Shown: positions 6,568-62,505 of the stretch, piece by piece
Position numbering within the stretch: the stretch's first letter is position 1
Layout of the letters: each line of letters begins with the position of its first letter
Assembly (NCBI RefSeq): GCF_963921235.1
Contig: NC_086097.1
Coordinates: 151,592,001 to 151,656,000, forward strand
Source: Mobula hypostoma
Lineage: Eukaryota
Length of the DNA: 64,000 nt
Reading direction: 5' to 3'
Position numbers and translations under genes: made by a program
Notes under the pieces: generated by a model
The model's database searches: none
What the model was told of the DNA's origin: nothing
What the model saw: only the letters and a program-made list of their open reading frames with translations

Positions 6568-8570
6568 ATGAACTACAACAATTGTTCATCCCAGTTTGGC
6601 AAAAGAATAAATCAAGGAAGGTAGTGCACCCGTGGCTGACAAGAGAAATTAGGGATAGTATCAATTCCAAAGAAGTAGCATACAAATTAGCCAGAGAAAG
6701 TGGCTCACCTGAGGACTGGGAGAAATTCAGAGTTCAGCAGAGGAGGACAAAGGGCTTAATTAGGAAGGGGAAAAAAGATTATGAGAGAAAACTGGCAGAG
6801 AACATAAAAACGGACTGTAAAAGCTTTTATAGATATGTAAAAAGGAAAAGACTGATAAAGACAAATGTAGGTCCCCTGCAAACAGAAACAGGTGAATTGA
6901 TTATGGGGAGCAAGGACATGGCAGACCAATTGAATAATTACTTTGGTTCTGTCTTCACTAAGGAGGACATAAATAATCTTCCAGAAATAGTAAGGGACAG
7001 AGGGTCCAGTGAGATGGAGGAACTGAGCGAAATACATGTTAGTAGGGAAGTGGTGTTAGGTAAATTGAAGGGATTGAAGGCAGATAAATCCCCAGGGCCA
7101 GATGGTCTGCATCCCAGAGTGCTTAAGGAAGTGGCCCAAGAAATAGTGGATGCATTAGTGATAATTTTTCAAAACTCGTTAGATTCTGGACTAGTTCCTG
7201 AGGATTGGAGGGTGGCTAATGTAACCCCACTTTTTAAAAAAGGAGGGAGAGAGAAACCGGGGAATTATAGGCCGGTTAGCCTAACGTCGGTGGTGGGGAA
7301 ACTGCTGGAGTCAGTTATCAAGGATGTGATAACAGCACATTTGGAAAGCGGTGAAATGATCGGACAAAGTCAGCATGGATTTGTGAAAGGAAAATCATGT
7401 CTGACGAATCTCATAGAATTTTTTGAGGATGTAACTAGTAGAGTGGATAGGGGAGAACCAGTGGATGTGGTATATTTGGATTTTCAAAAGGCTTTTGACA
7501 AGGTCCCACATAGGAGATTAGTGTGCAAACTTAAAGCACACGGTATTGGGGGTAAGGTATTGGTGTGGGTGGAGAATTGGTTAGCAGACAGGAAGCAAAG
7601 AGTGGGAATAAACGGGACCTTTTCAGAATGGCAGGCGGTGACTAGTGGGGTACCGCAAGGCTCAGTGCTGGGACCCCAGTTGTTTACAATATATATTAAT
7701 GACTTGGATGAGGGAATTAAATGCAGCATCTCCAAGTTTGCGGATGACACGAAGCTGGGTGGCAGTGTTAGCAGTGAGGAGGATGCTAAGAGGATGCAGG
7801 GTGACTTGGATAGGTTGGGTGAGTGGGCAAACTCATGGCAGATGCAATTTAATGTGGATAAATGTGAAGTTATCCACTTTGGTGGCAAAAATAGGAAAAC
7901 AGATTATTATCTGAATGGTGGCCGATTAGGAAAAGGGGAGGTGCAACGAGACCTGGGTGTCATTATACACCAGTCATTGAAAGTGGGCATGCAGGTACAG
8001 CAGGCGGTGAAAAAGGCGAACGGTATGCTGGCATTTATAGCGAGAGGATTCGAGTACAGGAGCAGGGAGGTACTACTGCAGTTGTACAAGGCCTTGGTGA
8101 GACCACACCTGGAGTATTGTGTGCAGTTTTGGTCCCCTAATCTGAGGAAAGACATCTTTGCCATAGAGGGAGTACAAAGAAGGTTCACCAGATTGATTCC
8201 TGGGATGGCAGGTCTTTCATATGAAGAAAGACTGGATGAACTGGGCTTGTACTCGTTGGAATTTAGAAGATTGAGGGGGGATCTGATTGAAACGTATAAG
8301 ATCCTAAAGGGATTGGACAGGCTAGATGCAGGAAGATTGTTCCCGATGTTGGGGAGGTCTAGAACGAGGGGTCACAGTTTGAGGATAGAGGGGAAGCCTT
8401 TTAGGACCGAGGTTAGGAAAAACTTCTTCACACAGAGAGTGGTGAATCTGTGGAATTCTCTGCCACAGCAAACTGTTGAGGCCAGTTCATTAGCTATGTT
8501 TAAAAGGAAGTTAGATATGGCCCTTGTGGCTACAGGGGTCAGGGGGTATGGAGGGAAGGCTGGGTTCTGA
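6568..8570 (+). CDS. CR1 ORF2, C-terminal part (reverse transcriptase)
   Basis: KSPGPDG, NYRPVSLTS, LDFQKAFDKV, SGVPQGSVLGP, FADD; the first ~10 codons of the 6537 ORF are flanking DNA. Confidence 0.93.
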
Positions 8571-8676
8571 GTTGGATGATCAGCCATGATCATAATAAAT
8601 GGCGGTGCAGGCTCGAAGGGCCGAATGGCCTACTCCTGCACCTATTTTCTATGTTTCTATGTTTCTATGTTTCTAT
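6568..8676 (+). mobile_element. Young 5'-truncated CR1 LINE
   Basis: Uninterrupted RT frame, 3' UTR and (TTCTATGT)n tail at 8647-8676; nearly identical to the copy at 27165-30926. Confidence 0.97.
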
Positions 8677-12800: not shown

Positions 12801-14810
12801 AATCTCTGCCTTAAATACACCCAATGACTTGGCCTCCACTGCTGCCCATGGCAACAAATTCCATAGATTCACCACCCTCTGACTAAAAAAATTTCTTCGC
12901 ATTTCTGTTCTGAAAGGGCGCCCTTCAATCCTGAAGTCATGCCCTCTCGTACTAGACTCCCCCATCATGGAAAACAACTTTGCCACATCCACTCTGTCCA
13001 TGCCTTTCAACATTCGAAATGTTTCTATGAGGTCCCCCCTCATTCTTCTAAACTCCAAGGAATACAGTCCAAGAGCGGACAAATGTTCCTCATATGTTAA
13101 CCCTCTCATTCCCGGAATCATTCTAGTGAATCTTCTCTGAACCCTCTCCAACGTCAGCACATCCTTTCTTAAATAAGAAGACCAAAACTGCCCACAGTAC
13201 TCCAAGTGAGGTCTCACCAGCATCTTATAGAGCCTCAACATCACATCCCTGCTTCTATACTCTATTCCTCTAGAAATGAATGCCAACATTGCATTCGCCT
13301 TCTTCACTACTGACTCAATCTGGAGGTTAACATTAAGGGTGTCCTGTACGAGGACTCCCAAGTCCCGTTGCATCTCCGCACTTTGAATTCTTTCCCCATT
13401 TAAATAATAGTCTGTCCGTTTATTTTTTCTGCCAAGTGCATAACCATACACTTTCCAACATTGTATTTCATTTGCCACTTCTTTGCCCATTCTTCCAATC
13501 TATCCAAGTCTCTCTGCAGACTCTCCATTTCCTCAGCACTACCGGCCCCTCCAACTATCTTCGTATCATCAGCAAACTTAGCCACAAAGCCATCTATTCC
13601 ATAATCCAAATCATTGATGTACAATGTAAAAAGAAGGGGCCCCAACACGGACCCCTGTGGAAAACCACTGGTAACTGGCAGCCAGCCAGAATAGGATCCC
13701 TTTATTCCCTTGGAGATTCTGCTCCCAACTACAACCATTCTTCAGCCACAATTCAGAGATCGCCACAACATCATAACCGACAACCTATCTTATCATCCAT
13801 CGTCCATCTTATTTCTTATAATCCGTGCATTGAGATATAATACTTTGAGTACTGTATTTGCTGCTCTTTTTGATTCTGCATCCCTAATGCCCTGCTGACT
13901 GCAATTTTGTCCTATCATCTGCCTGCCCTTCCTGGCAGTCTATCACGCTATCTTTGCTTTTTTAACTATCTGTCTTATCCTGAGTCCTTTCACTCTGGTT
14001 CCCATCCCCCTGCCAAATTAGTTTGTACCCTCTGCAGCAGCTCTTATAAACCTGCCTGTGAGAATATTGGTCCCCCTTGGGTTCAGGTGCAACCCATCCC
14101 TTTTTTCACAGGTCAAACCTCCTCCAGAATAGATCCCAAATATCCAAGAACCTGAACCCTTGCCCCCTGCACCAGCTTCTCGGCCACACATTTATCTGCC
14201 ATATCATCCTGTTCTCTGGTGCGTGGCAGAGGTAGCAATCTAGAAATTACTGCCCTGGAGGACCTGCTTCTCAGCTTGCTGTCTAGTTCTCTAAATTCTC
14301 TTTTCAGGATCTTTTTGCTTTTCCTTCCTATGTCATTGATACCAATATGTACCAAGACATCTGGTTGCTCCCCCTCCCTTTCCAAAATGCTGTGGACATG
14401 ATCCAAGACATTCCTGACCCTGGCATTTGGGAGGCAACATACCATCCAGGTGCCCCATGAACATTCACAGAATCTCCTGTACCCCTGACACAGTAAGAAA
14501 AAAGGGAAACTTAACAGAAATTTACCCAGACAACTTACCCAAAGCCAATACCTCTTCCGAGCTGAAGCCTCCTTTGAGCCTAAGCCTGACACTCCCGCTC
14601 TCACCACTGGCCCACTCCCAATAATGGCCGCTCCACTTGTCCCTTCTGCACTTTTATTAAGTCCTCTATGCGCTGCTTCCGTCGCTGATTGGGCCACTGG
14701 AATGACACCGAACACCCGCGAAGCTCTCCTTTTAAACAAGCGCCCCCGACCTGTGAGAAACCTCCTTGATGTGCACTGCTCCCATCACTGATTGGGCTGC
14801 CGGAATGATC
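9835..14810 (-). mobile_element. Near full-length degenerate CR1 LINE (5' UTR, ORF1 esterase remnant, EN, RT, 3' UTR) with a nested CR1 at 12648-13709
   Basis: Fragmented ORFs with CR1 RT/EN motifs; SGNH remnant VLVHIGINDIG at about 14340; host is contiguous across the insertion (tgtaacc|ttggagattctgctccca). Confidence 0.88.
12648..13709 (-). mobile_element. 5'-truncated CR1 LINE nested in an older CR1
   Basis: ORFs 13400-13738 (SGFPQGSVLGP, FADD) and 12738-13490; 3' tail ccaaaagaccataaga at 12646-12661. Confidence 0.9.
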
Positions 14811-26385: not shown

Positions 26386-27264
26386 GGAAATCATGTCAAT
26401 TTGCAAACCTTATCTCTTCAGTGGCCTAAAGCTATGAACCAGTTGTCAGCCCTCTTCAACAATGCTGCTTGTGTAAACTGGTTCCCTTTTAAATTCAAAA
26501 CTAATTACTTGTTATTGATAGGTAGCTTTTATTTAAAATAGTTTGTGAAGTCTGGTTCTTACTGTATGTGTATTAATGGCTGCTATATCTAAAATTGCAC
26601 GCTCTCTGACAATGGCTGCTTCTCCCTGATACAAGTAAAACAGTATATTTTGGGACATGGCTCCATGAATAGGAATGGTAAATGGATACCTTTTTACCCT
26701 GTTGAATAATACTATTGATCATACACTGAAAGTTTGTAGCCAATATGAATCTGTTTTATAGAAAGTTAATTAAATACCAAGATAAATCTTGTGGGTGATT
26801 AATCAAAAGATGAAATGAGCTGTTTTTCTTTCTTGCAGAACTCTGCTGAGGTCAGTTGCAAACCATTTTTCACCTGGGGGCTTGACCTTTAAAATGATGC
26901 TGGTGGACTCGAGAACATTTAAATAGAGTTGATTAATGATTCTGGGAATTAGGCATTTTTGACTTGAAAACCTCTTGAAGAGTGGATCTTGTTTTCACTG
27001 AAGTAAATAAGTCCCAGTCTTTTTATATACGGTAGTATTGCAAATGGGCATTTCAATAGATTAGCAGAACTGCTAAAATTATTTGTGTGATCTTTTGATC
27101 ATTGGGTCAGGAGAAGTGGCAGCAATGTGGTTGACAGTGGGGCAGAGCTGAACCATGGCAATAGATATAGAAACATAGAAACATAGAAAATAGGTGCAGG
27201 AGTAGGCCATTCGGCCCTTCAAGCCTGCACCGCCATTTATTATGATCATGGCTGATCATCCAAC

Positions 27265-30200
27265 TCAGAACCCCGCTCCAGCCTTCCCTCCATATCCCCT
27301 GATCCCTGTAGCCACAAGGGCCATATCTAACTCCCTCTTAAACATAGCCAATGAACTGGCCTCAACAGTTTGCTGTGGCAGAGAATTCCACAGATTCACC
27401 ACTCTCTGTGTGAAGAAGTTTTTCCTAACCTCGCTCCTAAAAGGCTTCCCCTCTATCCTCAAACTGTGACCCCTCGTTCTGGACTTCCCCAACATCGGGA
27501 ACAATCTTCCTGCATCTAGCCTGTCCAATCCCTTTAGGATCTTATACGTTTCAATCAGATCCCCCCTCAATCTTCTAAATTCCAACGAGTACAAGCCTAG
27601 TTCATCCAGTCTTTCTTCATATGAAAGTCCTGCCATCCCAGGAATCAATCTGGTGAACCTTCTTTGTACTCCCTCTATGGCAAAGATGTCTTTCCTCAGA
27701 TTAGGGGACCAAAACTGCACACAATACTCCAGGTGTGGTCTCACCAAGGCCTTGTACAACTGCAGTAGTACCTCCCTGATCCTGTACTCGAATCCTCTCG
27801 CTATAAATGCCAGCATACCATTCACCTTTTTCACCGCCTGCTGTACCTGCATGCCCACTTTCAATGACTGGTGTATAATGACACCCAGGTCTCGTTGCAC
27901 CTCCCCTTTTCCTAATCGGCCACCATTCAGATAATAATCTGTTTTCCTATTTTTGCCACCAAAGTGGATAACTTCACATTTATCCACATTAAATTGCATC
28001 TGCCATGAGTTTGCCCACTCACCCAACCTATCCAAGTCACCCTGCATCCTCTTAGCATCCTCCTCACTGCTAACACTGCCACCCAGCTTCGTGTCATCCG
28101 CAAACTTGGAGATGCTGCATTTAATTCCCTCATCCAAGTCATTAATATATATTGTAAACAACTGGGGTCCCAGCACTGAGCCTTGCGGTACCCCACTAGT
28201 CACTGCCTGCCATTCTGAAAAGGTCCCGTTTATTCCCACTCTTTGCTTCCTGTCTGCTAACCAATTCTCCACCCACACCAATACCTTACCCCCAATACCG
28301 TGTGCTCTAAGTTTGCACACTAATCTCCTGTGTGGGACCTTGTCAAAAGCCTTTTGAAAATCCAAATATACCACATCCACTGGTTCTCCCCTATCCACTC
28401 TACTAGTTACATCCTCAAAAAATTCTATGAGATTCGTCAGACATGATTTTCCTTTCACAAATCCATGCTGACTTTGTCCGATCATTTCACCGCTTTCCAA
28501 ATGTGCTGTTATCACATCCTTGATAACTGACTCCAGCAGTTTCCCCACCACCGACGTTAGGCTAACCGGTCTATAATTCCCCGGTTTCTCTCTCCCTCCT
28601 TTTTTAAAAAGTGGGGTTACATTAGCCACCCTCCAATCCTCAGGAACTAGTCCAGAATCTAACGAGTTTTGAAAAATTATCACTAATGCATCCACTATTT
28701 CTTGGGCTACTTCCTTAAGCACTCTAGGATGCAGACCATCTGGCCCTGGGGATTTATCTGCCTTCAATCCCTTCAATTTACCTAACACCACTTCCCTACT
28801 AACATGTATTTCACTCAGTTCCTCCATCTCACTGGACCCTCTGTCCCTTACCATTTCTGGAAGATTATTTATGTCCTCCTTAGTGAAGACAGAACCAAAG
28901 TAATTATTCAATTGGTCTGCCATGTCCTTGCTCCCCATAATCAATTCACCTGTTTCTGTCTGCAGGGGACCTACATTTGTCTTTACCAGTCTTTTCCTTT
29001 TTACATATCTATAAAAGCTTTTACAGTCCGTTTTTATGTTCTCTGCCAGTTTTCTCTCATAATCTTTTTTCCCCTTCCTAATTAAGCCCTTTGTCCTCCT
29101 CTGCTGAACTCTGAATTTCTCCCAGTCCTCAGGTGAGCCACTTTCTCTGGCTAATTTGTATGCTACATCTTTGGAATTGATACTATCCCTAATTTCTCTT
29201 GTCAGCCACGGGTGCACTACCTTCCTTGATTTATTCTTTTGCCAAACTGGGATGAACAATTGTTGTAGTTCATCCATGCAACCTTTAAATGCTTGCCATT
29301 GCATATCCACCGTCAATCCTTTAAGTGTCATTTGCCAGTCTATCTTAGCTAATTCACGTCTCATACCTTCAAAGTTACCCCTCTTTAAGTTCAGTATCTT
29401 TGTTTCTGAATTAACTATGCCACTCTCCATCTTAATGAAGAATTCCACCATATTATGGTCACTCTTACCCAAGGGGCCTCTCACGACAAGATCGCTAATT
29501 AACCCTTCCTCATTGCTCAAAACCCAGTCCAGAATAGCCTGCTCTCTAGTTGGTTCCTCGACATGTTGGTTCAAAAAACCATCCCGCATACATTCCAAGA
29601 AATCCTCTTCCTCAGCACCTTTACCAATTTGGTTCACCCAGTCTACATGTAGATTGAAGTCACCCATTATAACTGCTGTTCCTTTATTGCACACATTTCT
29701 AATTTCCTGTTTAATACCATCTCTGACCTCACTACTACTGTTAGGTGGCCTGTACACAACTCCCACCAGCGTCTTCTGCCCCTTAGTGTTACGCAGCTCT
29801 ACCCATATCGATTCCACATCTTCCCGGCTTATGTCCTTCCTTTCTATTGCGTTAATCTCTTCTTTAACCAGCAACGCCACCCCACCTCCCCTTCCTTCAT
29901 GTCTATCCCTCCTGAATATTGAATATCCCTGAACGTTGAGCTCCCATCCCTGGTCACCCTGGAGCCATGTCTCTGTGATCCCAACTATATCATAATCATT
30001 AATAACAATCTGCACTTTCAATTCATCCACCTTATTACGAATGCTCCTTGCATTGACACATAAAGCCTTCAGGCGCTCTTTTACAACTCTCTTAACCCTT
30101 GTACAATTATGTTGAAAAGTGGCCCTTTTTAATGCTTGCCCTGGATTTGTCGGCCTGCCACTTTTACTTTTCTCCTTTGTACTTTTTGCTTCTACGCTCA

Positions 30201-30318
30201 CTTTACAGCCCTCTGTCTCTCTGCACTGGTTCCCATCCCTCTGTTGTGAACTAACCTCCTCACGCCTAGCCTCTTTAATTTGATTCCCACCCCCCAACCA
30301 TTCTAGTTTAAAGTCACC
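27265..30318 (-). CDS. CR1 ORF2: APE-type endonuclease + reverse transcriptase; intact frame but no AUG before the endonuclease
   Basis: NARSI, GITETW, GGGVAL, YRPP, MGDFN, LDWV, SDH, then RT motifs to FADD; frame is open from 30318 (TGA at 30321-30319); the track's start at 30297 is TTG. Confidence 0.95.
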   Translation of the reverse strand, partial: GDFKLEWLGGGNQIKEARREEVSSQQRDGNQCRETEGCKVSVEAKSTKEKSKSGRPTNPGQALKRATFQHNCTRVKRVVKERLKALCVNARSIRNKVDELKVQIVINDYDIVGITETWLQGDQGWELNVQGYSIFRRDRHEGRGGGVALLVKEEINAIERKDISREDVESIWVELRNTKGQKTLVGVVYRPPNSSSEVRDGIKQEIRNVCNKGTAVIMGDFNLHVDWVNQIGKGAEEEDFLECMRDGFLNQHVEEPTREQAILDWVLSNEEGLISDLVVRGPLGKSDHNMVEFFIKMESGIVNSETKILNLKRGNFEGMRRELAKIDWQMTLKGLTVDMQWQAFKGCMDELQQLFIPVWQKNKSRKVVHPWLTREIRDSINSKDVAYKLARESGSPEDWEKFRVQQRRTKGLIRKGKKDYERKLAENIKTDCKSFYRYVKRKRLVKTNVGPLQTETGELIMGSKDMADQLNNYFGSVFTKEDINNLPEMVRDRGSSEMEELSEIHVSREVVLGKLKGLKADKSPGPDGLHPRVLKEVAQEIVDALVIIFQNSLDSGLVPEDWRVANVTPLFKKGGREKPGNYRPVSLTSVVGKLLESVIKDVITAHLESGEMIGQSQHGFVKGKSCLTNLIEFFEDVTSRVDRGEPVDVVYLDFQKAFDKVPHRRLVCKLRAHGIGGKVLVWVENWLADRKQRVGINGTFSEWQAVTSGVPQGSVLGPQLFTIYINDLDEGIKCSISKFADDTKLGGSVSSEEDAKRMQGDLDRLGEWANSWQMQFNVDKCEVIHFGGKNRKTDYYLNGGRLGKGEVQRDLGVIIHQSLKVGMQVQQAVKKVNGMLAFIARGFEYRIREVLLQLYKALVRPHLEYCVQFWSPNLRKDIFAIEGVQRRFTRLIPGMAGLSYEERLDELGLYSLEFRRLRGDLIETYKILKGLDRLDAGRLFPMLGKSRTRGHSLRIEGKPFRSEVRKNFFTQRVVNLWNSLPQQTVEASSLAMFKRELDMALVATGIRGYGGKAGAGF

Positions 30319-30926
30319 TCAGTAGCCCCCGCTAATCTCCCTGCCAGGATATTGGTCCCCCTAGGATTCAAGTGTAACCCGTCCTTTTTGTACAGGTCAC
30401 GCCTGCGCCAAAAGAGGTCCCAATGATCCAAAAACTTGAATCCCTGCCCCCTGCTCCAATCCCTCAGCCACGCATTTATCCTCCACCTCATCGCATTCCT
30501 ACTCTCACTGTCGCATGGCACAGGCAGTAATCCCGAGATTACTACCTTTGCGGTCCTTTTTCTCAACTCCCTTCCTAGCTCCCTATATTCTCCTTTCAGG
30601 ACCTCATCCCTTTTCCTACCTATGTCATTGGTACCTATATGTACCACGACCTCTGGCTCCTCACCCTCCCACTTCAGGATATCTTGGACACGATCAGAAA
30701 TATCCCGGACCCTGGCACCAGGGAGGCAAACTACCATCCGGGTCTCTGGACTGCGTCCACAGAATCACCTATCTGACCCCCTTACTATCGAGTCCCCTAT
30801 CACAACTGCCCTCCTCTTCCTTGCCCTACCCTTCTGAGCTACAGGGCTGGACTCTGTGCCGGAGGCACGGCCACTGTCGCTTCCCCCGGGTAAGCTGTCC
30901 CCCCCAACAGTACTCAAACAGGAGTA
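30303..30926 (-). pseudogene. CR1 ORF1 C-terminal SGNH/GDSL esterase domain (5'-truncated, one premature stop)
   Basis: VIGDSIVRG, CLPGA, VHIGTND and DGLHLN blocks; TGA at 30767-30765 (probable CGA>TGA). Confidence 0.9.
30306..30312 (-). promoter_or_regulatory. Candidate -1 ribosomal frameshift slippery site U_UUA_AAC
   Basis: ORF1 ends ACT TTA AAC TAG; ORF2 continues in the -1 frame; the same TTTAAACTAG occurs at 61759-61750. Confidence 0.65.
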
Positions 30927-30949
30927 TGATTCTGTTCCGCTAATAAAAG

Positions 30950-31960
30950 AATGCCTCTTGTGCAATTGGATCATCAATTTCCTCACTTGCAGACCCCAGT
31001 TAGTTTGGATTGGCAATGACATCTCCTCCACAATCTTCGTCAGCACAGGTACATCACAAGGCTGTGTGTTTAGCCCCCTGCTCTACTCGCTTTACACTTA
31101 CGTCTGTGTGGCTAAGCACAGCTCCAAAGCCATTTTTAAGTTTGCTGATGACACCACTGTCGTAGGCTGAATCAAAGGTGGGAACGAACCAGCAAATAGG
31201 AGGACATATGAAACTCTGGCTGAGTGGTGTCACAACAACAGTCTCTTACTCAATATCACCAAAACCAAGGAAGTGATTATTGACTTCAGGAAGAGGAAAC
31301 TGGGTGACCATGAACCAGTCCTCATCGGGGGATCAGAAGTGGAGAGGGTCACCTACTTCAACTCCTCGGTGTTATCATTTCAGAGGATCTGTCTTGGGCC
31401 CAGTTTATAAGTACAATTACGATAAAACTCGGCAGTACCCGTATTTCCTTAGGAGTTTGCAAAGTGTTGGCATGACATCTAAAACTTCGGCAGACTTCTA
31501 TAGATGTGTGGTGGAGAGTATATTGACAGGCTGCATCACAGCCTTGTATGGAAACACCAATGCCCTTGAATGGAAAATCCTACAAAAACTAATGGATATG
31601 GCCCAGTCCATCATGGGAAAAGCCCTCCCAACCATTGAGCATATCTGCATGGAGCATTGATGCAGGAAAGCAGCATCCATCATCAAGAATCCCCACCACT
31701 CAGGAGATCTTCTCTGTTTGCTGCTGCCATCAGGAAGAAGGTACAGGAGCCTCAGGACTCAGACCGCCAGGTTTCGGAACAGTTATTACCCCTCAACCAT
31801 TAGACTCTTGAGCCAGAGGAGATAAATTTACTTGTCCAATCACTGAACTGTTCCCACAACCTATGGATTCACTTCCATCTCATGTTCTCACCATTTATTG
31901 ATTTATTTATTTATTGACGTGTGTTTATCTGTTTATTTATTTATTATTTTTTATTTCTCT
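30950..31960 (+). mobile_element. Degenerate Rex1/Babar-type LINE 3' part
   Basis: [50 protein letters not shown]-rich tail. Confidence 0.85.
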
Positions 31961-31989: not shown

Positions 31990-34450
31990 GACGTAGCCAA
32001 GCACAACCATTTCTCAGTTGCTAGGAAATTTCATACTATTCTCATGGCGTTTGGTATTGTGGCTTTCTAGAGATTTTCATAAATATTGCTGTGTAGGCCT
32101 GATTGTTTAATACTATTGTGTAGTGACTTTGGGATGAAACCAGTTGTTGATATTACTATTGGGGCAATGTATTTTATTTTCCTTTTTAAATTCAGTATAT
32201 TTCTGATGTGTTTCACTTATTGATTTCTGTATGTTATGTTTGTTTGGAATGGGTACATCTATTAAATTGTTCTTGCTTGCTTATCCTGTTTCATTATATC
32301 CAGACGATTATTATGGATTGTCCTATGTGTAATAACGGTTTGGTCATAATAAAATTTGTGGGACTCGTACTCTGAAACTGGATCAGACCTGCATTTATAG
32401 TAATGTATGTTTTTTTTATGAGTCTGTACTTTAAAGCAAGAATTTGGTGAATGATGTTTGCCACTTGATTGTGCCTGTGTAAGAAATCGGATTGAATTAA
32501 ACTTCTGCAGGAACCTATAATATGTTGGATTGTTTCTGGTTTCTCTTGGCATTTTCTACATTTATCATCTTGATTTTGTTGGTCTTTTATTATGTACTTT
32601 TGATCATTTTTTTTGTGTTAACCACCTGATCCTGTATTGCCACAAGCAACCCTCTGTTTCTGGGAAGAGGTCTCCAAATCTGAGCCAGGTATCTGACACA
32701 TCCTAGTCCTCTAGTCTGCTCAGGTCATGGGGTTGTCTTCCATGGGGTGTCATGCTCTTCCATTAGTTAACTTTTTCTTCAATAGTGATTATTTCTTCAT
32801 TTTTTCTGGGTTGTGCTCCCAATTAAGTTTAGTGGTGTGTGCTTTTTATCAGAATTGCATATGCCTGTATGGAATGCTGATTCCTATTTTTGTTGATGAA
32901 AATCTATCCTTAGAAATTTTATCTGTCATGTAATTTTTTGAAGTCTGTTATTCCTCTTCCTCCTTCTGACCTAGTTAATGCTCGGTCCTTAACTAGCATT
33001 AGTTAAGTTTGAGTGTACAAAATGTTTTTAAAAATTTGTCATTTCATTTCTTATTTTTCTTTGTAAATTTTCAGATCAGTGTTGGACCAAAATATTATTC
33101 CCAAAAGAATATGTTAATATGCGTGTAACACACTCAGAAAGGTTTCACTGCTAGCGTAATGGTTTTTCTGTAGAAGCAGTGTCTGGCTTATGGTTAGAGA
33201 TAACGGATGCTTTGGAATGTGAACCGGGCACTTTGTTCGGCGGGAGATGAAGAGGGAGGACGCTGGAGAGAACCAGTCGTAAGATTTGACCCGGAGAGGA
33301 CTGTGATTCAATGGAGCAAGGTGCTTCAGTCGACTGAGGATCGGTGAATATGACTTTTGGAAGAGTTGAGCTCCAACTTGTGCAGATTTGACTGTTTAAT
33401 TGTAATGGACACTTTTTGGTTTTTTCGTTTTATCTTTAATTCCTTTAATCATATGCAGTGTGCTGTCTGTTATTTCTTGGCACTGAGTTGTAATAGGGTA
33501 GCAAATTACACAGCATCCGCACAACCCGGGGTTTGGGGTGAAGAACCGTCTTAATCCCAAGGGTTTGGTAGGATTGCAGCATGTATTCCCTAGACTTACA
33601 CAGCCAAGGAAACCAGCGAGATTTCATGGGTATAGAGGAAGTGTTTATTGCCTTTTTTATATTTTTACTATTGAGCTCTGTTTGGCAGATTTTCTTAAGC
33701 ATTGAAGTAAATTCTGTGGATAGTTTTCACTTTATCGCACTATGATCTATTTTCTTTGCTTGTTAATATTCGAGATACTTATATGTTTCATACTCATCCA
33801 TCGGTTGTATTGTATCCTGCTGCTCTCTTTTATATTCTACTAGAGCTAGTGCACCTTTCTTTACATTTAACGTTCTGCACATACCTAGCTCATCTTATAT
33901 CTTTAGAAAATAGTTCTACTATTTGAATTAATTGCTTTAGCTTTACTAATGAAGGAAGGTATAATTTCAAATTGTCCACGTATAGAAGATCTGTCAAGGT
34001 ATAATCTGTTTTATTGTTTCTGATCTGAAACCCATGTTCATCTGATTCAGTAAATTCGAGAGCAGATTTAAAGCTAAACAAAACCATAGTGGGCTTAGAG
34101 AGCCACCCTAGAAAATACCAGTGTTTATTTTGATAATGGTGGTTGTTCTTTTATGGTGGTTAATAGATAGGGTGATTATAGTATGCCATTGCTTCATCAG
34201 ATATTAAAAGAATGTCTCAAGTATTGGGTGTAGATTATATATATTAAGAACCTCTATTAAGCATGAGTGTGGGACAAAGTCAAATGCTTTTGATAGTCAA
34301 TATAAGATTTCTGCTTTTCCACCGGGCTTGGTTTAGAATTACAGAATCTATTGACAGTTGTTATTTACATCCTTTCATACCCTTACAGCATCCTCTCTGC
34401 TCTTCTGTAAGTATATTGTGGTTATCTAAGTGAGAGGTGATTAGTTGCGA
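31990..34450 (-). mobile_element. Degenerate R4/Dong-clade (REL-endonuclease) non-LTR retrotransposon, split by a solo LTR
   Basis: EEQRGCCKGMKGCK; LLYVDNLKLY (YxDD remnant); AINTSSIP|ILTYSFG; CCHC knuckle CRKCQEKPETIQHIIGSC; REL motif YDQTVITHRTIHNNRLDI...DK. Confidence 0.85.
33124..33626 (+). mobile_element. Solo LTR (503 bp), related to 784-1373
   Basis: TGTAAC...TTTCA; TSD TGCG/TGGG (one mismatch); removal restores the R4 codons IP-ILTY; shares aaggtttcactgcta..gtaatgg with the 784 LTR. Confidence 0.85.
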
Positions 34451-61524: not shown

Positions 61525-62505
61525 ACTAGGTTCATCTTCCTTACCTGTAATGATCCTTGCATTAAAATAAATGTTTCTCAGCCCATCAATTGCACTCTGT
61601 TCATTTACCTGTTCCTGTCTATCCTTTTTTTCCATCCTACTTGACCTAATCCTTTTCGTCCCTTCAGTCTCCATTTATTGCCCTCATGCTTTGGTTTCCA
61701 AAACAATGCCAGACCACCCCCCTTCCCCCAGCCCAACCTCAATACCATGCTAGTTTAAACCACCTTGAATAGCACAGGCAAACCTCCCGGCAAGGCATTT
61801 GATGCACGTCCAGATTAAGTGCAACTCAAGAGTACAATGTACCAGAAGCCCCACATCCTGCACCAGCTTCTAGGAACACATTTAATTGTACTCTTCTTAT
61901 TCCTTGTCTTGCTAGCTTGTGGCACGGTGAATAATCCAGAGATTAATGAATCAGAATCAGGTTTATCGGCAAAGAATGTTAGTCAGGAATTTTGTCATTT
62001 CATGTCAGCAGTCCAGTGGAGGCATAGCAAATTACAATAAATTACAATATAAAAAATACATAACTAGTTGAAAATAAGAATAACAAGGTAGTATTCATGG
62101 GTTTATGGACCATTTGAAAATTTGATGGTGGGAGAAAGGAATCTGTTTTTGAAATACTGAGTGAAGGTCTTCAAGCTCCTATACCTCCTTCCTAATGGAG
62201 GTAATAAATAGAGGGCATGTTTTGGAAGGTGAGGACCATTAATGATAGATGCTGCTTATTCAAGGCACTGCCTTTTGAAGATGTCTTCAATGATGGGGAG
62301 TCTTGTGTCTGCGATTATTACTCACGATGCTTTGTTTCTTAACTTTCAGCATTAGCTTCTAAATTCTCATCGTAGGACTTCGTCTTTCTTTCTGCCTATG
62401 TTGTTAATATGGACCACCACCTCTGGCAGTTTACCCTCCTCTTTCAGAATGCCCTGTGCCCACACAGAGACTTCCTTGACCCTGGCACCAGGGAGGCAAC
62501 ATACA
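61525..62505 (-). mobile_element. Old CR1 fragment spanning the ORF1/ORF2 junction, interrupted by a Rex tail (about 61945-62310)
   Basis: tgttgcctccctggtgccagggtcaagga (CLPGARV); GGTTTAAACTAG; LRNIYFNARII. Confidence 0.75.

Follow-up and report, generated by a model that had tools for sequence, protein, structure and literature searches.

How is the second open reading frame of a CR1-type LINE translated when it lies in the −1 frame relative to ORF1, opens just before the ORF1 stop codon, and has its first in-frame AUG within the endonuclease domain? This question is raised by an element on the minus strand of a 64,000-nucleotide stretch of the Mobula hypostoma genome (NC_086097.1, positions 151,592,001 to 151,656,000), here called the window, in which position 1 is the first letter. 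In cartilaginous fish, reptiles, and birds, few LINE families are as common as CR1. In the literature searched, we found no account of how their ORF2 is translated, and a frameshift, if real, would explain how the family makes its copying enzyme. The initial annotation of this DNA had proposed that programmed −1 ribosomal frameshifting fuses ORF1 to ORF2. Our analysis lends this proposal comparative support, in the form of a conserved heptamer, stop codon, and −1 phase, and shows its arguments from the missing AUG and from a downstream G-run to be weaker than originally written. The reading that we favor, with a probability of roughly 0.7, is a programmed −1 frameshift at U_UUA_AAC, conserved across CR1 lineages, that would produce an ORF1–linker–endonuclease–reverse transcriptase (RT) fusion.

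The element is a 5′-truncated LINE copy that runs from about 30926 to 27166. Its ORF2 is intact, with 1017 codons open in the list of open reading frames, and contains Pfam matches to Exo_endo_phos (residues 102–288) and RVT_1 (residues 575–792), an order of AP-type endonuclease and then RT that fits a CR1-type LINE. Pfam revealed neither a protease nor an integrase domain in this frame. CR1-type LINEs end at the 3′ side in short 8-base tandem repeats rather than poly(A) and are commonly 5′-truncated; the tail of this copy, which consists of three 8-base repeats without poly(A), and its 5′ truncation agree with this pattern. We take the element to be a CR1 on the basis of this anatomy and of known features of the family. 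The esterase of ORF1 (Lipase_GDSL_2, E 5e-16 by Pfam) also fits, as this domain was first described in the CR1 clade (PMC3905857), and a profile of ORF1 relatives matches PDB entry 4c1b, the solved esterase of a retrotransposon ORF1-encoded protein, with an E value of 4e-43. Among the named ORF1 relatives, the nearest (311 residues, 97% identity) carries the label Mobula hypostoma, and residues 105–311 of the full-length relative P0001 match 30926–30306 at 95.7% in a tblastn comparison. ORF1 is interrupted here by a premature TGA at 30767–30765, and this copy is therefore unable to make the ORF1 protein; because the copy is also 5′-truncated, the mechanism considered below concerns the full-length copies of the family. 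A second copy in the window, at 6568–8668, is 98.5% identical over 2.1 kb, indicating that the family is young. The features of the junction and of related remnants are collected in Table 1.

Table 1. Coordinates of the CR1 copy, its ORF1/ORF2 junction, and related junctions in the window.
Feature	Positions	Strand	Basis
CR1 ORF1 remnant, esterase half, 5′-truncated	30303..30926	−	tblastn with P0001; list of open reading frames
SGNH/GDSL esterase domain, ending Thr-Leu-Asn	30306..30764	−	Pfam; profile match to 4c1b
TGA, upstream bound of the −1 (ORF2) frame	30319..30321	−	
Putative slippery heptamer U_UUA_AAC, in ORF1 phase	30306..30312	−	Pattern as in PMC3542737
ORF1 stop TAG adjoining the heptamer	30303..30305	−	
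Out-of-frame ATG of an 8-codon ORF; in the ORF2 frame only in a minority one-G-shorter variant	30299..30301	−	
G-rich run GGTTGGGGGGTGGG, 6 nt past the heptamer; predicted two-tier quadruplex	30286..30299	−	
ORF2-frame linker without Met, from shift site to endonuclease start motif	30064..30306	−	
GTG, ORF2 codon 40, a candidate site for reinitiation; aligns with Met in two sister families	30199..30201	−	
First in-frame ATG of ORF2, residue 218, within the endonuclease domain	29665..29667	−	
ORF2 frame, AP-type endonuclease and reverse transcriptase, intact	27265..30318	−	
3′ tail, three 8-base repeats, TTTCTATG-like	27166..27189	−	
Decayed, diverged CR1 junction reading TACAAAC TAA, with two differences from the heptamer	14018..14027	−	
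Decayed CR1 remnant junction, TTTAAAC TAG retained	61750..61759	−	

At the junction, ORF1 ends ACT TTA AAC TAG, and the TTTAAAC within this ending lies in the X_XXY_YYZ phase that defines −1 shift sites (PMC3542737). The remaining geometry was also described correctly at the outset: the ORF2 frame is −1 relative to ORF1, opens after the TGA at 30321–30319, and overlaps ORF1 by 16 nt, and the G-rich run begins 6 nt after the heptamer. The first ORF2 AUG does fall inside the endonuclease, but its residue number, given as 211, is 218 when counted from the start of the frame. From the in-phase heptamer, the −1 frame is open into the downstream ORF, both here and in the distant locus L002 described below. 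The layout is not that of stop-codon readthrough, as ORF2 is in the −1 frame and the ORF1 frame is shut again 34 codons on. A canonical heptamer precedes only 36 of the 6696 stop triplets (0.5%) in the six frames of the window, TTA accounts for only 15–20% of the Leu codons of this element, and T occupies 21–24% of its four-fold third positions. ORF2 contains no other in-phase heptamer, compared to 4.1 expected, and this zero count was reached by 16 of 1000 synonymous shuffles.

Conservation of the ORF1 ending was assessed in 188 ORF1-like proteins, 155 of which align past the catalytic His and enter the counts of Leu-Asn (LN) endings. LN is the ending of 42 of the 51 relatives at ≥45% identity and of 34 of the 104 at <45% identity, and named ORF1 relatives are known from rays, skates, sharks, sturgeon, and turtle. 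Glu, Gln, Lys, Met, and Trp, none of which has a codon ending in U, immediately precede LN in 1 of 50 dereplicated proteins, compared to 74 of 450 residues over positions −4 to −12 (p 0.002). The same residues are also scarce at positions −6, −7, −9, and −10 (2–4 of 50 each), and a polar-residue control gave a p value of 0.23; we regard the avoidance as only suggestive of a constraint on U. In a quick esterase tree from which the C-terminal residues were omitted, a clade of 72 rows with a support of 96 holds 62 LN-ending proteins and both DNA-verified −1 junctions. This tree used 140 columns, has 48 of its 146 inner branches open, and leaves out five loci with ORF2 in frame and the proteins whose core is short or absent. 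Two CR1-type ORF1 proteins labelled as bacterium and flatworm (P0020 and P0036) come from short contigs and are probably host DNA in those assemblies.

At the DNA level, one locus, the bony-fish-like L002, is the sole CR1-type junction in 80 viral and metagenome loci among the matches listed; the metagenome scan gave at least 79 loci, one of them with a CR1-type junction among the matches listed. Besides the junction in the window, L002 is the only unbiased intact DNA junction among the matches listed. Its ORF1 is 47% identical to that of the window and nearly identical to a protein labelled Acipenser, and at identical degenerate residues the codon is shared at 14 of 45 positions in ORF1 and 5 of 20 in the endonuclease, so that synonymous sites are mostly randomized. 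L002 keeps an identical TTTAAAC TAG, its −1 ORF2 opens 22 nt ahead of the stop, and its linker contains no Met before the endonuclease. Other scans for relatives gave one weak, unrelated esterase locus in viral contigs, 27 loci in genome contigs that were titled as bacteria or uncultured prokaryotes and were 23–37% identical, and no match in plasmids.

Translated sequences provide further junctions. The −1 frame reads F-K-L in five lineages, namely P0010, P0031, P0065 (named from turtle), P0207, and P0257/259/261, with one miss, P0230, in which it reads F-K-M. F-K-L in the −1 frame combined with an LN-stop ending in the ORF1 frame fixes the nucleotides as T TTA AAY TAR. Five linkers measured from F to the endonuclease span 35, 47, 68, 71, and 86 codons and are open, and three of the lineages that carry them have no Met there. 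Both the F-K-L and the open-linker evidence are biased, because only proteins with an open −1 frame show F-K-L. The two decayed remnants in the window differ at the site, with the heptamer kept at 61759 and two changes at 14027; in both, stops close the −1 frame, and it is the ORF1 frame that now contains the endonuclease motif. Of 587 loose-end rows, 20 are listed, and three of these, at 30337, show T TTA AA behind differing upstream codons when read by eye.

We also aligned contigs from four runs at 80% likeness to the junction, with places 30240–30441 listed. The initial annotation had pointed to a possible family consensus with one G fewer in the G6 run, which would bring the AUG at 30301 into the ORF2 frame. 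Among the rows listed, this variant is only a minority, at 3.1% of contig depth in run X1 and 0.19% in run X5, and none was found in runs X9 and X16 among the rows listed. Substitutions are absent from 30271–30328 among the rows listed, an absence that we do not count as evidence because young copies decay neutrally. Across the few DNA junctions, and with the test on the residue before LN partly decisive, the site is conserved at the nucleotide level beyond what the protein needs. The combination of heptamer, stop codon, and −1 phase is a real, conserved feature.

The linker is the place where another route to ORF2 would leave its mark. The absence of an AUG before the endonuclease is true of this copy, and the read counts for the family cover 30240–30441, to one side of the codon at 30201. 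In relatives, in-frame AUGs are common before the endonuclease, which weakens the original AUG argument. The GTG of this copy at 30201–30199 is replaced by a Met codon in two sister families, whose linkers are 75–76% identical to the one here, and P0207, labelled Hypanus sabinus, has Met directly after F-K-L in the ORF2 frame, which implies a UAAUG stop–start overlap with its AUG in the ORF2 frame. In most other CR1 ORF2 clusters examined, a Met lies 23–61 residues before the endonuclease motif, although first residues may be GTG or TTG starts chosen by a gene caller. An in-frame AUG at or near the stop is present in P0207 and the P0206 cluster and absent in this copy, L002, and P0257/259/261; an AUG kept family-wide near the ORF1 stop, as in the LINE-1/SART1 type of junction, was thus not found. 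The linker of this copy, at 86 codons, is 18 codons longer than the 68-codon linker of its sister P0207 (30243–30302, minus strand) and carries a G-rich motif twice, at about 30299 and 30238, which suggests a frame-preserving duplication. A 12-codon ATG ORF in the ORF1 frame (30236–30198, minus strand) ends in a TGA that overlaps ORF2 codon 40; an ATG at codon 40 would give an AUGA overlap with this small ORF, which may be chance.

Because sister families have an AUG at the position of the GTG, and one has the UAAUG overlap, termination followed by reinitiation remains a live rival. Ribosomes would stop at UAG or UAA and restart in the ORF2 frame at the UAAUG where there is one, at a linker AUG or GUG, or at some codon other than AUG, so that the ORF2 protein would be made unfused; the candidate codon in this copy is the GUG at codon 40, 102 nt past the stop. 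The P0207 overlap, the codon-40 Met of the two sister families, and the Met residues in most other linkers all speak for such a restart, which is also the route of LINE-1 and SART1 and, in its calicivirus version, tolerates changes of the start codon (PMC5972666). Reinitiation leaves unexplained, however, why T TTA AAY is kept before the stop at 47% protein identity and why the −1 frame is open from the heptamer onward. In the nine junctions read, F-K-L is followed by E, D, G, I, M, or A, with Met in only one of them, and no Met precedes the endonuclease in L002 or in the P0257 family. Moreover, because Met makes up 2.1% of ORF2 residues, a single Met in a linker of 50–90 residues, and likewise Met in linkers of 35–86 codons, is expected by chance. 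On balance, we consider reinitiation to be an unlikely source of the ORF2 protein.

To a combination of the two routes, in which the frameshift site is ancestral and real and some subfamilies, possibly the sisters of this one, supply most of their ORF2 protein by reinitiation at a linker AUG, we give little credence. The P0207 family does have heptamer and AUG together, but the heptamer ending is unrelaxed in lineages that bear an AUG, with LN in 9 of the 11 members of the skate ORF1 cluster. More improbable still is an explanation in which the ending is preserved because Leu-Asn packs onto the esterase fold, or because the RNA there acts as a signal (for splicing or termination, for example), with ORF2 made from spliced or internally started RNA. 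The Leu is in helix register with the hydrophobic positions −6 and −10, as packing would predict, but LN stays at the stop even though the distance from the catalytic His to the end varies (18, 21, 23, 24, 26, 28, and 35 residues beside the usual 22), the last three ORF1 residues are modeled with low confidence (pLDDT <50), and the match to 4c1b ends before the LN columns (profile positions 144–307 of 311). A constraint on the protein, in addition, fixes neither TTA nor the preceding U. With respect to splicing, TAG-ending junctions may resemble an acceptor AG, but TAA-ending junctions contain no such AG.

Under the frameshift that we favor, most ribosomes would terminate at UAG and release the ORF1 protein alone. 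A minority would slip back by one base, with the Leu and Asn tRNAs on UUA AAC, read CUA next, escape the stop codon, and go on to translate the linker, endonuclease, and RT. We infer that slippage would supply most of the ORF2 protein, with the fusion as its working form, given that no protease domain was found in ORF2. A pause would come most likely from the adjacent stop codon, perhaps aided by the G-rich run, and the stimulator is the most uncertain part of this explanation.

A search for downstream structures gave little to account for stimulation by RNA folding. In five folds, with a tool whose model covers structures other than pseudoknots, no 3′ stem-loop was more stable than those of shuffled sequences (z from +0.76 to −0.92); there was no Rfam match at the junction, and no long-range partner for the G-run was better than those of shuffled queries. 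As to the G-rich stimulator proposed originally, a two-tier quadruplex is all that is predicted, in three of four junctions, and it is missing in L002, the best distant junction. Quadruplex stimulation at UUUAAAC has been described with a spacer of 6–8 nt, reaching about 7% with (G3U)4, which has four G3 tracts (PMC3919603); that quadruplex is stronger than the G-run found here. A stop codon directly after the shift site is described in several plant viruses (PMC4737148). According to the same source, replacing the stop with a sense codon cut frameshifting in PEMV by 72% in vitro, and in BYDV a reporter showed an effect of the stop that full-length RNA did not (PMC4737148). The luteo-, diantho-, and umbravirus sites described there have the stop directly or 3 nt after the heptamer, resembling the adjacent stop in this element; unlike the junction here, where neither was found, theirs are accompanied by a large hairpin at the stop and by long-range pairing (PMC4737148).

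More distant esterase LINEs have other junction layouts. Among the matches listed, both the esterase and the endonuclease start are present in 39 of the 80 loci, and these comprise 26 with ORF2 in frame behind one stop (examples of this layout are L013, L025, L079, L020, and L004), 1 clean −1 junction (L002), 1 clean +1 junction, and 11 that are interrupted. After dereplication, the in-frame stop is TGA in 14 of 17 loci and TGAC in 9 of 17, compared to a background of 8%, among the matches listed; the corresponding p value of 2e-6 overstates the case because the loci are related. TGA CTA occurs in 4 of the 17 dereplicated in-frame loci among the matches listed, and two related loci among the matches listed, L012 and L031, have a TAG G stop. 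Leaky stop contexts include UGAC and UGA-CUA (PMC3542737). In the quick esterase tree, the in-frame-stop loci group apart from the LN clade with a support of 86. A third ORF1 clade, of 47 rows, contains 28 proteins that end in Asn (13 LN, 8 QGN, and 7 other). ORF1 proteins ending in QGN or KN include P0076, P0081, P0101, P0104, P0105, P0118, P0138, P0151, P0157, and P0170, and no DNA for this group was found in the contig scans; as a guess, the stop in these genes could be preceded by a G_GGA_AAC or A_AAA_AAC heptamer, either of which would fit such endings.

Two unrelated layouts of recoding type at one junction would make an ORF1–ORF2 fusion the simplest common product. Reportedly, Kajikawa et al. 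proposed in 2012 that ORF2 of the zebrafish L2-clade element ZfL2-1 is translated by suppression of the ORF1 stop, which is also a route to a fusion. ZfL2-1 has the same esterase fold in its ORF1 (4c1b; PMC3905857) and differs in having an in-frame stop instead of a −1 overlap, a layout whose loci lie apart from the LN clade. As a tentative generalization, which we think could well be wrong, esterase LINEs may repeat the retroviral split between frameshifting and readthrough: vertebrate CR1 would slip on U_UUA_AAC mainly by means of the stop and without a classical 3′ structure, L2-like relatives would use UGA-C readthrough, the QGN/KN clade would use other heptamers (G_GGA_AAC, A_AAA_AAC), and the RT would be made as an uncleaved Gag-Pol-like fusion.

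Several known systems can be compared with the junction described here. Viral and retroviral gag-pol frameshifting is similar in that the heptamer fits the consensus in phase and the product would join a structural protein to RT (PMC3542737); here, by contrast, no 3′ stem-loop was found, ORF2 has no protease or integrase domain, and the element belongs to the LINEs. LINE frameshifting itself has a precedent, because the legend of a review figure states that a −1 frameshift is needed for ORF2 of Dictyostelium TRE5-A and TRE3-A (PMC5911963). These are APE-type non-LTR elements with the same ORF1 and APE-RT layout, but they belong to another host kingdom and have a different ORF1, whereas the CR1 junction has a 16-nt overlap ending in heptamer and stop. 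LINE-1 and SART1 share with CR1 a bicistronic LINE RNA, with ORF2 dependent on translation of ORF1 (PMC5972666), and one CR1 sister family has a stop–start overlap; LINE-1, however, has a 63-nt spacer and an AUG where this element has a −1 overlap, a fixed heptamer, and no fixed AUG. A statement of CR1 frameshifting was not found in the literature searched, the scope of which lay outside the original CR1 papers, and the first 300,000 of the 449,034 characters of a frameshifting review (PMC5009743) contain no mention of CR1; an earlier proposal is quite possible.

If real, the frameshift would set the ratio of ORF1 to ORF2 protein and give the RT an ORF1 domain at its N-terminus, and ORF2 annotations that start at an internal Met would be wrong. 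It would also place in vertebrate chromosomes a shift site that is conserved from rays to turtles and seemingly operates without the usual 3′ structure.

The window contains further retroelement sequences. A fragment of another RT-encoding element on the plus strand (30838–31660; RVT_1, E 7e-7) abuts the 5′-truncated end of the CR1 copy. A 107-codon frame on the minus strand (32294–32617) has a Cys/His motif like a non-LTR zinc knuckle, with a zf-RVT match (E 0.006) under the cut-off. In a decayed CR1 copy at 14600–13600 (minus strand), the endonuclease start is fused to the RT near 13708, an internal deletion, and more CR1 pieces extend beyond this copy down to about 9960.
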